Shown here: in pieces, positions 1,632-49,040 of the stretch
Layout: every line of letters begins with the position of its first letter
How positions within the stretch are numbered: the stretch's first letter is position 1
From: an uncultured Candidatus Saccharibacteria bacterium
Lineage (GTDB): Bacteria; Patescibacteriota; Minisyncoccia; Phycocordibacterales; WO2-35-19
Assembly (NCBI GenBank): GCA_964548205.1
Contig: CAZJPJ010000004.1
Location: forward strand, 21,577 to 85,576
Reading direction: 5' to 3'
Length of the DNA stretch: 64,000 nucleotides
The notes under the pieces: generated by a model
The model's database searches: none
The model's input: only the letters and a program-made list of their open reading frames with translations
What the model was told of the DNA's origin: nothing
Program-made: the position numbers and the translations under genes

Positions 1632-3342
1632 CGTTTACCAAGTATTCTCTTGTATTTCTAGCCATAAAGTCAATAACCTGCCTCATTACAGAAGTGGCTC
1701 CAACTAGGTTTTTTACTGGCCCTTTCTCCATAACCAAAGCGAAGGCATACTTAGGATTTTCATAGGGAAAGAAGCCTACTACCCAAGAATTTACAAACTG
1801 CTTCTTTGCACCGAGTTCTGCTGTACCAGTCTTAGCTGCGATAGCCACATCTTTGGTATTTAGACCTATGGCCGTAGAGTCAGTGACTGCCATACGCATA
1901 CCCTCACGTGCAATCTGAAAATGTTCGCTATCCCCTTCTATCTTTTCATTACTCTGAAGAACAGTTGACGTAGATGTAAACACGAGTGAAGGAGTGACGA
2001 GATGCCCACCATTTGCCAAGGCAGCCACAGCTCGGACAGCTTGTATAGGGGTTATTTGGGTTCCATATTGTCCAATAGATGTATTGTATGTATCACCTAT
2101 CCTCCACTCTTCTCCGTCAAATGTTTTAGCTTTCCATTCTGGATCAGGTATTACGCCGATAGCTTCGCTCCCAAAACCAAAACCGGTATCTCTAGCAAAA
2201 CCGAACTTCTCAAGATATTTTTTTATGTTGGCGACACCAAGACCTTTTTGGCTACCAAAGCCCCCACCAATCTGGTAGAAATATACGTCTGAAGATACAG
2301 CAATAGCCCTTCTCATATCTGTCGCACCATGAGCCTTCCAGTCCTTAAATATAGTGGGGTTGTCGGGATTATAAGGATTTGGTATCACTAAGCGACCGGT
2401 GCTTACGATCTCTCTTTCAGGAGTTATCACACCTTCCTCTAAAGCTGCAAAAGCGAGGAATGGCTTCACGATAGAGCCAGGTGTATAAAGACCATTATTT
2501 ATCCTCTCAAGAAAAGGATTGTCAGGATTTGAAAGATAAGAATTTATAACACCAACATCCGTACCGTCAGTCATCACTTGCGGATTATATTCTGGATAAC
2601 TCGTCATTGCTATTAATTCACCTGAATATATGTCCATTATGGCGCCAGTGCCACCCTTAAAATCAACTTTCTCTGCAAGATTTCTTATTTGTTTGAACAT
2701 TTCGTTTTGAATACGAGAATCAATCGAAAGAAATAAATCTTGGCCAGGTATAGGCTTTTCAACAACATTCTCAGATATAATATCCCCATTTACTGATACT
2801 TCTGAGAGTTTACTGCCGTTATACCCAGCAATAGCATCGTTCATATATAGTTCTACACCATCTTTTGGATCATAAGCTGCATTTATAAAGTAACCATTTG
2901 CATCCAAAGCGGGATTCTTCACAAACCCTAGCAATAAACCGAAGCCCTCTTCGTCAATGTACTTCCTTTGGGGAAATAATAGATCGGTAGATGTAGAAAA
3001 ATTATAAATCAGCTTTTCACCATTCCTACTATAAACTGTACCTCGAGGGGCTATTAGTAAACTTTTTTTCAAACTATTGTTGATACTACGTTCTCTAAAC
3101 ATATCTCCGTCTACTATCTGCAATGAATACAATTTTGTAGTAAAAACAAACAGTGTAATAACAATAAGGATTGTAGTGAAAATATATGAATACCTACTGA
3201 TTGGTCTTTCCAATCGACCCTCCATCTGATATTTATCAAAATCTGGTAAATTCCTAGAATCCAAAAAAACTTCGTCCGGATATATCTCCGACTTCGATTT
3301 TGAACTAATACGCCTGAGTGTACGTTTTAAACTTCCGAACAT
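1615..3342 (-). CDS. mrdA: penicillin-binding protein 2 (peptidoglycan D,D-transpeptidase), elongasome-associated
   Basis: N-terminal TM. SxxK (GSIVKPF) and KTG (AKTGTAE) motifs. Sits directly downstream of mreBCD. Confidence 0.85.
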   Translation of the reverse strand: MFGSLKRTLRRISSKSKSEIYPDEVFLDSRNLPDFDKYQMEGRLERPISRYSYIFTTILIVITLFVFTTKLYSLQIVDGDMFRERSINNSLKKSLLIAPRGTVYSRNGEKLIYNFSTSTDLLFPQRKYIDEEGFGLLLGFVKNPALDANGYFINAAYDPKDGVELYMNDAIAGYNGSKLSEVSVNGDIISENVVEKPIPGQDLFLSIDSRIQNEMFKQIRNLAEKVDFKGGTGAIMDIYSGELIAMTSYPEYNPQVMTDGTDVGVINSYLSNPDNPFLERINNGLYTPGSIVKPFLAFAALEEGVITPEREIVSTGRLVIPNPYNPDNPTIFKDWKAHGATDMRRAIAVSSDVYFYQIGGGFGSQKGLGVANIKKYLEKFGFARDTGFGFGSEAIGVIPDPEWKAKTFDGEEWRIGDTYNTSIGQYGTQITPIQAVRAVAALANGGHLVTPSLVFTSTSTVLQSNEKIEGDSEHFQIAREGMRMAVTDSTAIGLNTKDVAIAAKTGTAELGAKKQFVNSWVVGFFPYENPKYAFALVMEKGPVKNLVGATSVMRQVIDFMARNTREYLVNDANNS

Positions 3343-3351
3343 AAGATGATT

Positions 3352-3624
3352 TTACAATATTTTTCTCCATTCGACCCTATCCGAAAGTAAATTTACCAAA
3401 AAAAATACCACTAGAGACAGGATTGAAAAAGTATAGTTAAATACAAAACCGTCTCCTGTATAAAATAGTACATCACCAACAGCCCCCCAAAAAAATATCT
3501 CGATCGGGTTTCTAACCAATATCGGATAAATTATCATCGATATAATAAGAAACCACCAACCAAAAACAGTGCTTAAAACTAACATCAGAAGAGAAGAAAC
3601 GAATCTTAGAAAAACCTTATCCAT
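3352..3624 (-). CDS. mreD: rod shape-determining protein MreD-like small membrane protein
   Basis: 90 aa, entirely hydrophobic, positioned between mreC and the PBP2 gene. Confidence 0.5.
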   Translation of the reverse strand: MDKVFLRFVSSLLMLVLSTVFGWWFLIISMIIYPILVRNPIEIFFWGAVGDVLFYTGDGFVFNYTFSILSLVVFFLVNLLSDRVEWRKIL

Positions 3625-44509: not shown

Positions 44510-44971
44510 ATGAGTAAAATATCAAAAATAGCTTTAATAACAGGCCTCTCTACCCTTTTCGCCCTCAGCGCTAGTGCACAGACAATAGTAAGGGCAGAGG
44601 CTAGTACTCCCGATAGTATAAAAGTAGGCAAAGAGCAGACAGTAAACTGGAGTAGCGAGCATTTTCCAAAAGGAGCCTTCGTGCATATCAACCTTATAGA
44701 AAAAGTATCTGACTCCCCCAACACTTACGAGCTTGTAAGGAGACTTGCAGAATATAGCGTAAATGATGGCAATGAGACATGGGTGCCAGAAAGAGTAGAT
44801 ATGGGCAAGGAACTTTATATCGAAGTCACTTGTGCCGGAGCCACTAGATTCCCAGACGGATGTTCTTCTGCATTGCCTACAAGTAAGTTTGCAGTAGAGA
44901 GCAGTTTCGGCAGCAATCTTGCAAATATCTACACTGCATTTGTAGAATTCTTGGGTAGCGTGCTCAAATAA
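44510..44971 (+). CDS. hypothetical secreted protein (Sec signal peptide)
   Basis: MSKISKIALITGLSTLFALSASAQ signal; 153 aa. Confidence 0.5.
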   Translation: MSKISKIALITGLSTLFALSASAQTIVRAEASTPDSIKVGKEQTVNWSSEHFPKGAFVHINLIEKVSDSPNTYELVRRLAEYSVNDGNETWVPERVDMGKELYIEVTCAGATRFPDGCSSALPTSKFAVESSFGSNLANIYTAFVEFLGSVLK

Positions 44972-44989
44972 ATAAAGAAAAAATAAAAG

Positions 44990-45019
44990 CAAAAAACGAG
45001 CCTCAGTCTCGTTTTTTGG
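44990..45019 (+). terminator. intrinsic terminator
   Basis: aaaaaacgag-cctcagt-ctcgttttttgg. Confidence 0.55.
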
Positions 45020-45038
45020 TAAAACTGAACCCCCAAGC

Positions 45039-45341
45039 TCATCTGTAAAGACGCCAGGCCACCACCTGATGTTGCGGGAACACAGAATTGGGCAAACACC
45101 CATACGGTTCTATCGGATATAACCACACCAGTTCTGAGTGACCGAAGCCAATTGTTGCAAATGAGAACATGCCATTTCGCAACAAAATACAAAAAGTGCG
45201 CGCTCGGATACTGTGCTCCGGCAACTCAGGCAGCGGTCTAGTATTAAAACTCAAACGGCGCTCCCGCACAAACCGACTCATTCTTAGCCCGAGAGACCAG
45301 AATCGACTTTCTAGTTCCACTATTTCAACTTGTGTGCTCAT
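45039..45341 (-). CDS. hypothetical protein (100 aa), GC-elevated, unrecognised
   Basis: AGAGGTGA Shine-Dalgarno site then ATG; no motifs recognised. Confidence 0.3.
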   Translation of the reverse strand: MSTQVEIVELESRFWSLGLRMSRFVRERRLSFNTRPLPELPEHSIRARTFCILLRNGMFSFATIGFGHSELVWLYPIEPYGCLPNSVFPQHQVVAWRLYR

Positions 45342-45462
45342 AGATCACCTCTGCAACAAAACTAACATTTAAGGCCTGAATTTCCAAGTATCCTTATTAC
45401 AATAATATCAATATCCAGACTACTTTTATTTAATGATTTTTATGATAAAATCTGCATTATCG

Positions 45463-45511
45463 CGTCGGTGGTAGAGCTTGCCCCGCCACGGCGGGGTGAA
45501 GTCAATTACAA
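45463..45511 (+). repeat. tRNA-Tyr 5' fragment (positions 1-27) with a 25-nt GC hairpin inserted in the D-loop, immediately upstream of the GIY-YIG gene
   Basis: gcgtcggtggtagag [cttgccccgccacggcggggtgaag] tcaattacaa compared with the intact tRNA's gcgtcggtggtagagtggtcaattacaa. Confidence 0.65.
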
Positions 45512-45512
45512 T

Positions 45513-45755
45513 ATGTGGTATGTATATATTCTCAAAAGCTTGAAGGATGAAAAATACTATATAGGTTGTACAGATAATTTAGAGAGAAGAATTGATCAAC
45601 ACAACAGAGGAGAAAATTCATCGACTAGATTCCGGAGACCTTTTGAGTTAATCTATACAGAAACATACGCGAATAGCAGTATTGCTTATTCGAGAGAAAA
45701 GAAAATAAAAAGATACAAAGGTGGAAATACCTTTAGGAAATTGATAAGTAAATAA
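45513..45755 (+). CDS. GIY-YIG nuclease family protein (small, UPF0213/YhbQ-like)
   Basis: MWYVYILKSLKDEKYYIGCTDNLERRIDQHNRG, the GIY-YIG motif. The ATG at 45513 is preferred; the track ORF starts from an upstream GTG that lies inside the tRNA fragment. Confidence 0.7.
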   Translation: MWYVYILKSLKDEKYYIGCTDNLERRIDQHNRGENSSTRFRRPFELIYTETYANSSIAYSREKKIKRYKGGNTFRKLISK

Positions 45756-45756
45756 T

Positions 45757-45840
45757 GCGTCGGTGGTAGAGTGGTCAATTACAACAGACTGTAAATCTGT
45801 CGGCCTTAGGCCTACGCAGGTTCGAATCCTGCCCGGCGCA
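45757..45840 (+). tRNA. tRNA-Tyr (anticodon GTA), class II long variable arm
   Basis: GCGTCGGTGGTAGAGTGGTCAATTACAACAGACTGTAAATCTGTCGGCCTTAGGCCTACGCAGGTTCGAATCCTGCCCGGCGCA. Confidence 0.85.
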
Positions 45841-46037
45841 CAGCGCAAAACAAAACAAAAACAGGATAAATGCCTGTTTTTGTTTTCGTGCCTATGCACG
45901 AGGGAGGATTCGAAAGCCGGAGGGCACGGAGCGAAGCGAAGTCCGAACTTAGCAAAGTTCGGGCCCGAGGTGGGGTCGCGGAAAATTATTTTTGACGAAA
46001 AATAATTTATCTGTGACCGAATCCTGCCCGGCGCACA
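45823..46037 (+). mobile_element. att-like structure: a 20-nt direct repeat of the tRNA-Tyr 3' end (cgaatcctgcccggcgcaca) bounding a roughly 175 bp hairpin-rich segment; remnant of an element integrated at the tRNA 3' end
   Basis: Identical 20-mers at 45823..45842 and 46018..46037; internal palindromes (acaaaaacagg...cctgtttttgt and aaaattattttt-gacg-aaaaataatttt). Confidence 0.55.
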
Positions 46038-46089
46038 ATATCAAACTTTCCGATTTTTATATTACCCCTACTAGATGGTATGCGGTGAA

Positions 46090-46257
46090 TTATTCTTCTT
46101 CAGCTTCAGAAGCTGCCTCGTCGGCTTCTCGTTGAGCTTCGCTAGCGGCTTCTTTGCGATCATCCGCAACGTTCTGTCTATGGCCTGCATGACGATACTT
46201 CTGTGCTTTTTTAGTTCTTCTATCTGCTTCGTCTTCATATTTATTTTTATTTGCCAT
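46090..46257 (-). CDS. candidate 55-aa small charged protein (MANKNKYEDEADRRTKKAQKYRHAGHRQNVADDRKEAASEAQREADEAASEAEEE)
   Basis: Hand-translated; weak Shine-Dalgarno site; overlapped by two longer, less plausible track ORFs. Confidence 0.3.
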   Translation of the reverse strand: MANKNKYEDEADRRTKKAQKYRHAGHRQNVADDRKEAASEAQREADEAASEAEEE

Positions 46258-46352
46258 GATTGTTTTGTTATTTGTAACAATAAAACCATCACGGATATTT
46301 TAAACCGCAGACCATGAATAAATCGTGAAATAGAAGTAATATAGATTGGGAT

Positions 46353-49040
46353 CTAAATATTGACTTTCGTATCCAATATACTAGCTTCTATTATAGAACC
46401 ACGTCTACCTTTCTTGATATCAAAAATAAGCTCTCCACCTTTTTCAGAAACAGTTATCGAACCACCTTTCAAGACTTTCTTCGATATGATGTAAGAAGCG
46501 ATAGGATTGAGTATCTTATTTTGGATAAGGCGCTTGAGTGGTCTTGCACCATATTGTGGGTTGTAGCCTTCGTTTGCAAGGTAAACAAGAGCGCTATCTT
46601 CTACTTTGATGCTTATTTCTTTCTCTTCCAACCTCTTAGCCACCAGCTCGATCTGGATCTTTACGATATCTGCCACCGCTTCTTTACTTAGAATATCGAA
46701 GAGGATGATATCATCGATACGATTGAGAAATTCTGGCCTAAAGTGATCCTTGAGAGCCGCAAGCACCTTGTCTTTTACTGCCCCATAGTCTCCATCTTTC
46801 TTCTCCCCATCGGCAAATCCAATCTTTTCCATCCTATCAATGTATTGAGCACCTATGTTTGAAGTCATGATGATGATGGTATTTTTGAAGTTGACTGTCC
46901 TACCTTTCGAATCTGTCAGACGACCATTGTCTAGCACTTGGAGCAGTAAGTTGAAAACTTCCGGATGAGCTTTTTCTATTTCATCAAAAAGGACGATTGA
47001 ATACGGTCTATGACGGACCATGTCAGTAAGACTGCCACCTTCTTCATACCCTACGTATCCTGGAGGAGCCCCGATCAATTTTGATATGGCATGGCGCTCC
47101 ATGTATTCGGACATATCGATACGAAGCAAGGCCTTCTCATCGTTAAACATAAAGTCAGCCAAAGCTTTAGTAAGCTCTGTCTTACCTACTCCAGTAGGCC
47201 CAAGAAAAATGAACGAGCCAATAGGCTTGTTTGGGTCGCTTATACCAGCCCGAGAACGCTTGATAGTATCGCTGATCTTTTGGACAGCTTCGTCTTGACC
47301 AATGATTCTTGATTTGAGCTCTTCTTCCATCCTTCCGAGTTTCTCGGCTTCTTCTTCGAGCATACGAGTCACTGGTATACCAGTCCACCTAGAGACCACA
47401 CTCGCTATATCTGTTTCGGTAATTTCTTCTCTCAAAATTCTTCTGGAACTCTGAAGTTTCTTGAGCTTCTTCATACTCAGGTCGAGATTCTTCTCAAGAT
47501 TTGGAATAGTGCCATAACGTATTTCCGCCGCTTTCGATAAATCAACTACAGCCTCAGCAGACTCTGCATCAAGCCTAGCTTGCTCTAGCTTCTTCTTGGT
47601 ATCTTTTATCTCTGTCACTGTTTCCTTCTCGTTTTTCCACTTGAGATCTATCTCTCTTATTTTTTCTTGCAGATCAGCGATCTCTTGGTCGACTTGAACC
47701 AGACGGTCTTTGGCTTTGTTGTTTTTGGTCGATTCATTTTTCAAGGCCTCACGTTCTATCTCGAGCTTCACAATCTTAGAATTGGTCTCTTGCAAAACTG
47801 GAGGCATATTCTCAAGAGAGATCTTGAGCTCAGAAGCGGCTTCGTCGATAAGATCGACTGCTTTGTCCGGAAGGAACCTATCTGTGATATATCGAGTGCT
47901 TAAGTTTACCGCCGCTTTGATGGCATCATCAGTGATACGCACGCCATGATAGAGCTCATACTTTTCTTTGAGACCTCTTAAAATAGTTGTGGCGTCTTCT
48001 ACGTTTGGTTCTGAGACATAGACTGGTTGGAAGCGCCGAGTCAGAGCTGGGTCTTTCTCGATATGCTTCTGATATTCTTTGATGGTGGTAGCCCCTATGG
48101 CTCGAAGCTCGCCTCTAGCGAGAGGGGGTTTGAGCATATTGGATGCGTCGAGCGAGCCTTCTGCACTGCCAGCTCCGACGATAGTGTGTATCTCATCTAT
48201 AAAGAGGATTATTTTGCCGTTTGATTTTTCGACTTCTTTTATTATATTTTTTAGTCTTTCTTCAAATTCTCCTCTGTATTTGGTACCCGCCACAAGCAAA
48301 CCTACGTCTAAGGACACCAGCTCTTTGTCTTTTAGCGACTCCGGCACATTACCAGAAACTATCCGCATAGCCAAGCCCTCGGCAATAGCAGTCTTACCTA
48401 CACCCGCTTCTCCGATCAATATCGGGTTGTTCTTAGTGCGACGCGAAAGTATTTGGATAATTCTTGATATTTCTATGTCTCTACCAATAACTGGATCAAG
48501 CTTGTTCTCTTTGGCAAGCTTGGTAAGAGAACGAGTATACTTGACTAGAGTTTTAGCCTTGCCTTCACCGCCACTTGCACCTATACGACCTTGTTTTATC
48601 TCCTGTATTACGTACATCACTTTTTCCTTTTCGATCTTAAACTTGGCAAGCATATCTTTGGCTGGACCTGGCACATCGAGGCAAGCTATGAACAGATGCT
48701 CAGTAGAAACAAACTCATCTCCCATAGAGCTTGCCACCTTGGAAGAATGTTCAATGATGTGAGCTAGTTCGGGAGTAATGTATATCTGATAAGAAGGAGT
48801 CAGAGTGCCCCCACCTGGTTCGCCTTCTATGACTTCAAGAAGAGAATCGGTTAGTAGAATATGGTCCACTTCCAGAGTATCGAGTACCGAGATAACCATG
48901 CTCTCTTCCTGCAATATGAGAGCAGTAAGAAGGTGGAGAGGGCCTACGTGGTTACTACCACGTTCAATAACCAGTTCGTGAGACTTCCTGATGACTTCCT
49001 TAGCTTTGGTCGTAAAACGATTGAATGGAATCATAAGCAA
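46353..49040 (-). CDS. clpB: ATP-dependent chaperone ClpB (both AAA domains intact, coiled-coil M-domain)
   Basis: ILIGEAGVGKTAIAEGLA and ILFIDEIH (D1); IFLGPTGVGKTELTKALA and VLFDEIEKAH (D2); long coiled-coil between them. Confidence 0.9.
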   Translation of the reverse strand: MLMIPFNRFTTKAKEVIRKSHELVIERGSNHVGPLHLLTALILQEESMVISVLDTLEVDHILLTDSLLEVIEGEPGGGTLTPSYQIYITPELAHIIEHSSKVASSMGDEFVSTEHLFIACLDVPGPAKDMLAKFKIEKEKVMYVIQEIKQGRIGASGGEGKAKTLVKYTRSLTKLAKENKLDPVIGRDIEISRIIQILSRRTKNNPILIGEAGVGKTAIAEGLAMRIVSGNVPESLKDKELVSLDVGLLVAGTKYRGEFEERLKNIIKEVEKSNGKIILFIDEIHTIVGAGSAEGSLDASNMLKPPLARGELRAIGATTIKEYQKHIEKDPALTRRFQPVYVSEPNVEDATTILRGLKEKYELYHGVRITDDAIKAAVNLSTRYITDRFLPDKAVDLIDEAASELKISLENMPPVLQETNSKIVKLEIEREALKNESTKNNKAKDRLVQVDQEIADLQEKIREIDLKWKNEKETVTEIKDTKKKLEQARLDAESAEAVVDLSKAAEIRYGTIPNLEKNLDLSMKKLKKLQSSRRILREEITETDIASVVSRWTGIPVTRMLEEEAEKLGRMEEELKSRIIGQDEAVQKISDTIKRSRAGISDPNKPIGSFIFLGPTGVGKTELTKALADFMFNDEKALLRIDMSEYMERHAISKLIGAPPGYVGYEEGGSLTDMVRHRPYSIVLFDEIEKAHPEVFNLLLQVLDNGRLTDSKGRTVNFKNTIIIMTSNIGAQYIDRMEKIGFADGEKKDGDYGAVKDKVLAALKDHFRPEFLNRIDDIILFDILSKEAVADIVKIQIELVAKRLEEKEISIKVEDSALVYLANEGYNPQYGARPLKRLIQNKILNPIASYIISKKVLKGGSITVSEKGGELIFDIKKGRRGSIIEASILDTKVNI

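Follow-up and report, generated by a model that had tools for sequence, protein, structure and literature searches.

We analyzed a 64,000-nucleotide (nt) stretch of an uncultured Candidatus Saccharibacteria genome (GTDB phylum Patescibacteriota; assembly GCA_964548205.1, contig CAZJPJ010000004.1, positions 21,577 to 85,576), referred to here as the window, which has a G+C content of 41%. Our subject is its tRNA-Tyr(GTA) gene and the two elements that flank it. The tRNA gene itself is intact, lies on the plus strand at 45757-45840 (ARAGORN; Rfam RF00005, 60.6 bits), and does not encode CCA. On its 5' side is element 1 (45462-45755, plus strand), a cassette in which a partial copy of the tRNA carrying a GC hairpin is followed by a gene for a stand-alone GIY-YIG nuclease. 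On its 3' side is element 2 (45841-46037, plus strand), a noncoding segment of about 195 nt that ends in a second copy of the tRNA 3' end.

The upstream copy, which we call the pseudo-copy, comes in two blocks. Bases 1-15 of tRNA-Tyr, comprising the acceptor 5' strand and the start of the D-arm, recur at 45462-45476 as an exact 15-nt repeat of 45757-45771, and bases 18-28, the remaining part of the D-arm, recur at 45501-45511 as an exact 11-nt repeat of 45774-45784 (all plus strand). Between them, in place of the two D-loop nucleotides TG, is a 24-nt module, CTTGCCCCGCCACGGCGGGGTGAA (CTTG-CCCCGCC-AC-GGCGGGG-TGAA; 45477-45500, plus strand), whose arms at 45481-45487 and 45490-45496 fold into a 7-bp stem made up entirely of G-C pairs. 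The module occurs once in the window, with a chance expectation of 0. A preliminary description of the locus had reported a copy of the first 27 bases starting at 45463 and interrupted in its D-loop by a 25-nt hairpin. The exact upstream copy and the GC hairpin are indeed present, but the copy starts at 45462 and comprises 26 bases, and the insert is 24 nt long. The start-to-start distance between the upstream copy and the intact gene is 295 nt.

At the other end of the gene, the 20-nt direct repeat given in the same description is exact. Its first copy (45823-45842, plus strand) runs from T-loop base C56 to discriminator base A73, the last 18 nt of the tRNA, plus CA, and its second copy (46018-46037, plus strand) lies 175 nt further on. 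Neither the 5' nor the 3' repeat pattern arose in 100 dinucleotide-preserving shuffles; the repeats are real, exact, and nonrandom. The segment between the 3' repeats was also correctly described as rich in hairpins, and it folds better than its shuffles (z = -4.65).

The genes around the locus are open reading frames (ORFs) of 100 and 153 amino acids (aa) upstream and a 55-aa ORF and clpB downstream. The tRNA-Tyr/clpB neighborhood (window 46353-49040) is kept across a wide range of Patescibacteria, with clpB at ~65-71% nucleotide identity, which makes it a handy anchor for comparing occupied and empty sites.

The nuclease and its cassette across genomes

The gene in element 1 (45513-45755 including the stop, plus strand) encodes an 80-aa protein of the UPF0213/SLX1-YhbQ type. 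That a GIY-YIG ORF lies between the pseudo-copy and the tRNA, as originally proposed, is borne out by a Pfam match to PF01541 (E = 2.7e-17). The ORF begins within 2 nt of the pseudo-copy, and its TAA stop (45753-45755) ends one base before tRNA-Tyr. We take the ATG at 45513 as the true start rather than the listed GTG at 45468, because the Pfam GIY-YIG domain, which spans residues 16-84 of the resulting 95-aa reading, starts at that Met. The T5orf172 domain (PF10544) was also matched (E = 4.7e-06). The protein carries the VYI and YIG motifs, and residues Y5, Y16, G18, R26, H30, E50, R61, and E62 are invariant across 22 homologs, so the motifs and the conserved Arg, His/Tyr, and Glu expected of the GIY-YIG superfamily are all in place.

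Within that superfamily, the UPF0213/SLX1-YhbQ-YazA group offers the closest likeness. The window protein has the same size and motifs, is similar over the whole domain, and consists of 80 aa without extra domains. The best matches to solved structures in a PDB profile search were 1zg2 (BH0048; E = 5e-13) and 1ywl (EF2693; E = 2.1e-11), and SLX1 chains were matched at E = 7e-06 to 7e-04. No separate DNA-binding domain of the kind seen in Seg-like homing enzymes was found, the Pfam domain filling almost the whole 80 aa. No NCBIfam model reached its curated threshold (the group I intron endonuclease model scored 20.5 bits against a cutoff of 56), comparisons with PHROGs and PADLOC gave weak, motif-level similarity only, and exact look-ups of the window protein (80-aa and 95-aa readings; 100%-identical entry P0001) returned no match. 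The database entries of several homologs carry spurious N-terminal extensions that are in fact the translated hairpin. A 2020 review names bacterial YhbQ and YazA solely as relatives of SLX1, which in eukaryotes requires SLX4 and has a zinc-finger domain (PMC7017083). In the literature searched, neither a function nor a tRNA linkage was reported for bacterial UPF0213/YhbQ/YazA members.

Homologs at 46-67% identity come mostly from Patescibacteria, and homologs at 51-69% identity share the arrangement seen in the window. A scan taking one genome per species gave 80 loci at about 43-69% identity, from Patescibacteria, Omnitrophota, Bacteroidota, Marinimicrobia, and others, and in all 80 the ORF adjoins a tRNA gene on the same strand. 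In about 60 of these loci, the tRNA (Tyr, Ser(GGA), Glu, Pro, Gln, Gly, or Ala) lies 0-20 nt downstream of the ORF, whose stop codon is often inside the tRNA. In the other 20, the tRNA is immediately upstream of the ORF, which is followed by a 3' or full-length pseudo-copy. In nearly all loci that were read, the opposite flank of the ORF holds a partial copy of this same tRNA. In Adlerbacteria (L001-L004, L005), for example, a tRNA-Tyr-like fragment with GC hairpins is followed by the ORF and then by tRNA-Tyr, and the fragment matches the local tRNA even where this is unlike that of the window (GGCGGAG..ATCGCA in L005). In a neighbor-joining tree of the proteins, clades formed mainly by tRNA type (Glu, Tyr, Gln, Ser, Pro, and Gly). 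Viral relatives at 31-43% identity, taken from a scan of viral contigs as a negative control, had no adjoining tRNA in 12 of 13 loci.

In Bacteroidota, the ORF occurs in tandem arrays with tRNA-Pro-like copies. Three Bacteroidales loci (L039, L048, and L068, at ~2100-3500) contain 3-4 units of a GIY-YIG ORF plus a tRNA-Pro-like copy with a period of ~360 nt, the CCCCGCC hairpin standing in place of the D-arm in the copies, and a normal tRNA-Pro lies just upstream of the arrays in L048 and L068 and in the related nonarray locus L069. In Omnitrophota, tRNA-Glu is followed by one or two partial copies (L054, 2822-2955; L080, 2819-2890; L031, 1962-2090), which run from the 3' side of the D-arm to the 3' end and have the CCCCGCC hairpin replacing the anticodon arm.

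The hairpin was described at first as merely interrupting the duplicate. It is instead the most conserved hallmark of the nuclease family: at least one copy lies within -200/+250 nt of the ORF in 76 of 82 loci. Its density is 2.29/kb near ORFs and 0.061/kb in the remainder of the same loci, an enrichment of ~38-fold; under stricter scan criteria, the densities were 1.14/kb around ORFs, 0.027/kb away from them, and 0.015/kb at tRNA-Tyr loci that are empty. The same module is found in homologous Tyr-, Ser-, and Gln-type loci, and pseudo-copies contain one or more hairpins with the consensus CCCCGCC-N3-5-GGCGGGG, which occupy the D-loop or the 8/9 junction or else replace the anticodon stem or the D-arm. 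The stem is maintained through compensatory changes (TCCCGCC/GGCGGGA and TTCCGCC/GGCGGAA). L021, L032, L072, L081, and L086 have a variant stem in which an A is bulged (CCACCGCC..GGCGGGG), and L056 has a diverged form of it; the proteins of L056, L072, L081, and L086 cluster together in the tree. We also considered that the hairpin might mask a ribosome-binding site. We rejected this because the spacing from hairpin to ATG varies from 11 to 18 nt and because some loci show, past the hairpin, a Shine-Dalgarno-like sequence distinct from it.

For a view of how widely the insertions are distributed, metagenomes were scanned for the exact 39-nt core of the window tRNA-Tyr, which yielded 120 loci. 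The GIY-YIG gene is present in 3 of these, an ORF-less pseudo-copy with hairpin stands directly before the tRNA in 2 (L111 and L146), and the remaining loci are plain. The preliminary description had suggested looking for empty sites at related tRNA-Tyr loci, and a syntenic one exists: L112 has murC, tRNA-Tyr, and clpB in the order and orientation of the window and lacks the pseudo-copy, the ORF, and the downstream element. L110, in turn, has tRNA-Tyr with the same trailer and the downstream element and lacks the nuclease cassette. Elements 1 and 2 are therefore independent insertions. Presence/absence polymorphism and degenerate copies, both features of Seg-like homing genes, are observed here in comparisons between genera rather than strains. 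The same description held that finding the arrangement preserved in relatives would speak for an ancestral, fixed state. The arrangement does recur in many lineages, but its distribution is patchy rather than fixed, so its recurrence does not argue against insertion.

An ORF-less relic was also seen elsewhere in the window, upstream of tRNA-Asn (18020-17947, minus strand). It lies at 18086-18047 on the minus strand and consists of tRNA bases 1-13, a 16-nt palindromic hairpin (TCCGCCAGCTGGCGGA), and bases 17-27, with a 26-nt A/T spacer before the intact gene.

A structured family downstream of tRNA genes

Element 2 begins with a perfect A/T-rich hairpin with 14-bp arms (45852-45886, plus strand; 100% complementary inverted repeat), which is followed by a T run and resembles a terminator. 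A consensus terminator scan passed over it because its stem has too few G-C pairs. Next comes what we call the inner arm (..GCACGAGGGAGGATTCGAA; 45892-45914, plus strand), an imperfect reverse complement of the tRNA 3' end (78% complementary inverted repeats). Both copies of the direct repeat are possible pairing partners of the inner arm, and the tRNA-Tyr 3' end, the trailer, the 14-bp A/T hairpin, and the inner arm together form one long imperfect palindrome with the hairpin at its center. We also tried to read the inner arm as a copy of the acceptor 5' strand. In L001 and L010, however, it has a C opposite G69 where the 5' strand of the tRNA has a T, and it is therefore the complement of the tRNA 3' strand.

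A consensus was obtained with RNAalifold from 9 aligned examples, and a covariance model was built from that alignment. The consensus fold is a three-way junction. Helix P1 pairs the inner arm (..GGATTCG), its 5' strand, with the start of the tRNA 3' copy (CGAATCC..); arm PA has a GGA/GAG internal loop and a variable cap; and arm PB (GGTC../..GACC) carries a second variable cap. In the window, this structured core (model R1, consisting of P1 and arms PA and PB, each with its variable hairpin cap) lies at 45894-46035 on the plus strand (cmsearch, 104.9 bits), and the second copy of the direct repeat supplies the 3' strand of P1 and a mimic of the acceptor 3' strand. Among the 9 sequences, 91.6% of cells are paired, whereas column shuffles give 73% and sliding the partners gives 24-44%, and 13 of the 20 pairs show changes on both sides. 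For 26 distinct sequences, 93.5% of cells are paired and 19 of 20 pairs are compensatory, in an alignment that was fitted to the model and so favors the structure. G-U pairs are scarce in the fold across these 26 sequences. The junction sequences GAAAG, CGG-A, CGAG, GGGGTCG, and GTGAC are conserved.

Searched against other loci, the covariance model returned many new members, located downstream of tRNA-Trp, Leu(TAG), Leu(CAA), Thr(GGT), Lys(CTT), and Tyr. The family follows at least six tRNA kinds (seven anticodons). Members begin 1-72 nt past the tRNA, often behind a terminator-like hairpin, and nearly all end with an exact 15- to 21-nt copy of the 3' end of their own tRNA (10 nt in one case); some matches after Trp, Lys, and Tyr lack an exact copy. 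The sequence of the inner arm changes to match the neighboring tRNA. In most members, the repeat begins at T-loop base C56, within the palindromic TTCGAA. Different members stand in tandem at a single tRNA in L009, L099, and L114.

Within the window, the model finds the three known copies only. Those other than the tRNA-Tyr copy follow tRNA-Lys (53370-53297, minus strand), where two identical tandem units of 158 nt (53296-52981) give model matches at 53255-53140 and 53097-52982 (79.7 bits each). Both units end in the last 19 nt of tRNA-Lys and have sequence blocks in common with the segment after tRNA-Tyr. In two tRNA-Tyr loci (L148 and L186), we observed a 5' counterpart of the downstream element ~150-160 nt upstream of the tRNA, in which tRNA bases 1-19 are followed by ~135 nt of hairpin-rich noncoding sequence (a CTCCCGC..GCGGGAG hairpin included) and then by the intact tRNA.

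A search of 44900-46500 with Rfam 15 at E<=10 matched tRNA only, with no group I intron, hepatitis delta virus (HDV)-like, hammerhead, or tmRNA model, and a search of the whole window at gathering thresholds, the only scan to include the tRNA-Lys copies, found tRNAs only. The elements also differ from miniature inverted-repeat transposable elements in that their arms vary with the neighboring tRNA, the window has three copies of which two are a tandem duplicate, and the Tyr and Lys cores have diverged. We discarded the possibility that a group I intron lies in the D-loop or T-loop, on the grounds that the tRNA is uninterrupted, no intron model was matched, and known tRNA introns of Patescibacteria lie at 35/36. 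An anticodon-like loop in the downstream segment had suggested a degraded tRNA-Ser on the minus strand; ARAGORN and Rfam were negative, and this stretch is one of the variable hairpins.

Proposed mechanism and competing explanations

Taken together, these results lead us to favor, with moderate confidence, a reading in which two unrelated accessory elements occupy one tRNA-Tyr gene, both selfish and homing-like, with the tRNA kept working by duplication. It draws on the observed anatomy of the locus, the family membership of its parts, the universal tRNA linkage, the syntenic patchiness, the relics, and the conserved fold. The idea of a mobile-element scar put forward earlier holds insofar as these are accessory, tRNA-duplicating insertions with the GIY-YIG gene as 5' cargo, and fails insofar as the 3' repeat was to be the scar of an integrase.

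For element 1, the old 5' part of the tRNA (bases 1-28) would now be the dead upstream pseudo-copy with its cognate GC hairpin. There seems to be no space in front of the nuclease gene for its own promoter. It probably uses that of the tRNA and is read as a pseudo-copy/ORF/tRNA cotranscript from which RNase P would free the tRNA. The nuclease, which is SLX1-like and may be structure selective, could break the uninterrupted tRNA gene or the DNA beside it, perhaps at hairpin or cloverleaf DNA, and a break near base 27/28 would account for element 1. Repair would then copy the cassette from an occupied gene copy with tRNA sequence providing homology on both sides, which would account for the constant match between the flanking duplicate and the local tRNA. 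The hairpin is a putative binding or cutting site of the protein. It also divides the direct repeat into 15 and 11 nt and should thereby slow deletion of the gene by recombination. Element 2 may have entered at the T-loop, between TT and CGAA, by the same break-and-copy process or as a small recombining unit; a break at this point would explain both the element and the start of its repeat. Its arms would have to stay paired, as the inner arm could otherwise trap the tRNA's own 3' end.

Several points weigh against this reading. Site-specific homing is hard to picture for an 80-aa protein that has no DNA-binding domain. Occupied and empty loci do not differ in bases 7-45 of the tRNA, so a target within the tRNA would survive insertion, unlike in classical homing. 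The hairpin lies inside the pseudo-copy with local tRNA sequence on both sides, which simple break-and-copy leaves unexplained. When all loci were compared with one another in search of recent transfers, no cassette turned up in near-identical form between unrelated flanks, and the patchiness may therefore also reflect old insertion followed by many losses. The link between the two elements is weak, with element 2 present in 16 of 88 (18%) tRNA-Tyr loci that lack the nuclease and in 9 of the 20 that carry it (P = 0.017), two groups that were sampled differently. Finally, a terminator-like hairpin often stands between the tRNA and element 2, making transcription of the latter uncertain, and this hairpin and the few G-U pairs together mean that the fold could act in RNA or in single-stranded DNA.

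It is also important to consider what else could have produced these arrangements. Integrase-mediated insertion classically shows itself by direct repeats of a tRNA 3' end, and the preliminary description had read the 3' repeat as attL/attR. The downstream segment could accordingly be the remnant of an integrase insertion whose interior was lost, or an integrase-less unit moved in trans, mobilized by the integrase of a phage or island like the streptococcal cis-mobilizable elements. The exact 20-nt repeat at the borders suits this explanation, and several different members in tandem at one tRNA are what repeated integration at an att site predicts. The 175-nt segment, however, contains no gene, and there is no recombinase match among the neighboring ORFs, the part of the window that was scanned for recombinases. 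Units of 115-200 nt would be very small for recombinase synapsis. The interior forms a conserved three-way junction whose compensatory changes span six tRNA kinds, and its inner arm, complementary to the repeat, follows the identity of the neighboring tRNA. The attL/attR interpretation of the segment is thus not upheld, and we regard an integrase origin as quite unlikely.

The strong covariation and the conserved junction sequences would also be at home in a functional RNA tied to the tRNA, either a processing element or ribozyme acting in cis or an acceptor/T-arm minihelix mimic that is given CCA. This is a serious rival for element 2, even though we judge it unlikely overall. In its favor, the two arms form a continuous copy of the T-stem and acceptor stem ending at the discriminator base, the 3' copy is identical to the tRNA despite diverged cores, and ribozymes adjacent to tRNAs are known (PMC10879173). 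Set against this are the absence of an Rfam match at E<=10 for the tRNA-Tyr copy (the tRNA-Lys copies were scanned at gathering thresholds), a patchy distribution (18% of tRNA-Tyr loci without the nuclease gene), and a position that is usually 1-72 nt off the tRNA rather than abutting it and often behind a terminator-like hairpin. The tandem and mixed arrays resemble insertions, and G-U pairs are few. A comparable alternative for element 1 makes the nuclease a host enzyme of tRNA or tRNA-gene metabolism and its tRNA-like leader a regulatory mimic, as in the thrS operator. The gene is always tRNA linked and probably cotranscribed, its catalytic residues are conserved, and a 2006 survey of the superfamily reported one fusion of an SLX1-like GIY-YIG domain to the D-loop methylase TrmH (PMC1564403). 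A host enzyme would hardly be expected in only about 3% of the loci with the same tRNA-Tyr, with pseudo-copies that are cut at variable points and decaying (L009 and L036), ORF-less relics that persist, and tandem ORF-tRNA arrays in Bacteroidota; moreover, the leader is identical in sequence to the local tRNA rather than a structural mimic. We consider this explanation highly unlikely.

Known systems resemble the two accessory elements of the favored reading in part. The T4 SegB and T5 tRNA-region endonucleases are likewise encoded by optional GIY-YIG genes between or beside tRNA genes, and SegB cuts in the tRNA gene region and is inherited preferentially along with its flanks (PMC2330249). 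Seg proteins, however, exceed 200 aa and have a DNA-binding domain, whereas the window protein is an 80-aa catalytic domain only. Unlike the phage Seg genes, its gene is chromosomal (Patescibacteria, Omnitrophota, and Bacteroidota), lies 0-20 nt from the tRNA, and comes with a tRNA duplicate and a hairpin. To our knowledge, no Seg gene shows tight tRNA wedging, a duplicated tRNA part, or a signature hairpin. Islands and prophages inserted at tRNA 3' ends by tyrosine integrases are similar in that the insert replaces the part it displaces and is bracketed by direct repeats of the 3' end. They differ in that the inserts at our locus lack an integrase and measure 115-300 nt rather than kilobases, that one of them duplicates the 5' part of the tRNA, and that the interior of element 2 is a conserved fold with a repeat-complementary arm. 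The HDV-like theta ribozymes are also small, structured, noncoding, and numerous just past tRNAs of many types, but they lie <=5 nt from the tRNA, have a minimal HDV fold, and contain no tRNA 3' copy (PMC10879173); element 2 lies 1-72 nt away, forms a three-way junction, has a tRNA 3' copy at its end, and has no Rfam match. The group I introns that Patescibacteria have in their tRNA genes share the host phylum, are optional, and spare tRNA function (PMC13011429), but they interrupt the anticodon loop and need splicing, whereas the window tRNA is uninterrupted, matches no group I model, and has a duplication instead.

The literature searched contained no description of either the nuclease cassette or the downstream element. 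The tRNA linkage of one large subfamily, together with the position of a sister subfamily inside the RNase P RNA gene, offers testable biology, as selfish elements of stable-RNA genes, for UPF0213/SLX1-type stand-alone nucleases, which are widespread and without a role in the papers searched. It also explains annotation oddities in reduced genomes, such as spurious N-terminal ORF extensions, tRNA pseudogenes, and sub-threshold RNase P RNAs, and it would represent a second route, beyond introns and integrases, by which mobile DNA can occupy a tRNA gene without destroying it. The three-way junction is a new and well-supported structured motif downstream of tRNA genes (19 of its 20 pairs are compensatory). 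Should the hairpin prove to be the recognition element of the nuclease, the cassette would be among the smallest nuclease-plus-site mobile systems known.

A sister nuclease in the RNase P RNA gene

The window contains a second GIY-YIG ORF, also of 80 aa (55041-54802, minus strand), which interrupts the RNase P RNA gene (55083-54351, minus strand) at its P3 loop as part of a 250-nt insert. The interrupted gene scores 50 bits in Rfam, below threshold because of the insert. Along the gene, P1 (GGCCATATTT), P2, and the P3 5' strand (CCACGTGAGATAA) are followed by 9 nt and the ORF; after the ORF come the P3 3' strand (TTATCTCACGTGG) and AGGAAAGTCCGAAC (P4), with the 3' strands of P4, P2, and P1 at the far end. 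The ORF is thus bracketed by 13-nt inverted arms (CCACGTGAGATAA and TTATCTCACGTGG). This RNase P-type subfamily of nucleases is large (1524 matches). The arrangement recurs in two further loci, L225 and L226, where P3 shows a compensatory change and the Rfam RNase P matches begin in the end of the ORF. Considering the RNase P-type arms and the tRNA-type hairpin together, each nuclease subfamily has its own cognate inverted repeat, which in the RNase P type brackets the gene.

The two situations fit a picture of selfish elements of stable-RNA genes that spare the host gene, tRNAs by duplication and RNase P RNA by a loop closed with the element's own arms. A bolder extension, which we put forward tentatively and consider doubtful at present, is that an 80-aa GIY-YIG nuclease and a cognate inverted-repeat hairpin constitute a minimal, unrecognized kind of mobile DNA for structured-RNA genes (tRNAs and RNase P RNA). 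The hairpin arms would then be both the ends of the element and the substrate of the nuclease, and would also add a helix through which the insert is tolerated by the host RNA, as in P3 of RNase P RNA. In hosts intolerant of inserts, such as tRNAs, survival of the element would be confined to a duplicated stretch of the gene. The three-way-junction elements would be a second family with the same lifestyle, either nonautonomous passengers of break-and-copy or tRNA-minihelix mimics matured by tRNA enzymes.

Some further features of the RNase P-type ORFs were observed. The window ORF has CAG (54802-54760, minus strand) where L225 and L226 have the stop codon TAG, and it consequently reads 14 codons further, into RNase P RNA sequence. 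ORF-less hairpins with the arms of the P3 insert (CCCCGTGAGAT..ATCTCACGGGG) occur elsewhere in RNase P RNA genes, at 54474-54434 (minus strand) in the window and at ~1915-1955 and ~2125-2165 in L225, and look like miniature derivatives. In L223/L224 (1470-1765), an RNase P-type ORF with 13-nt inverted arms lies between uvrD-like and LysM genes, distant from any RNase P gene. With TATAC on both flanks, this insert, seen at one genomic site, looks like a transposon with a 5-bp target duplication.

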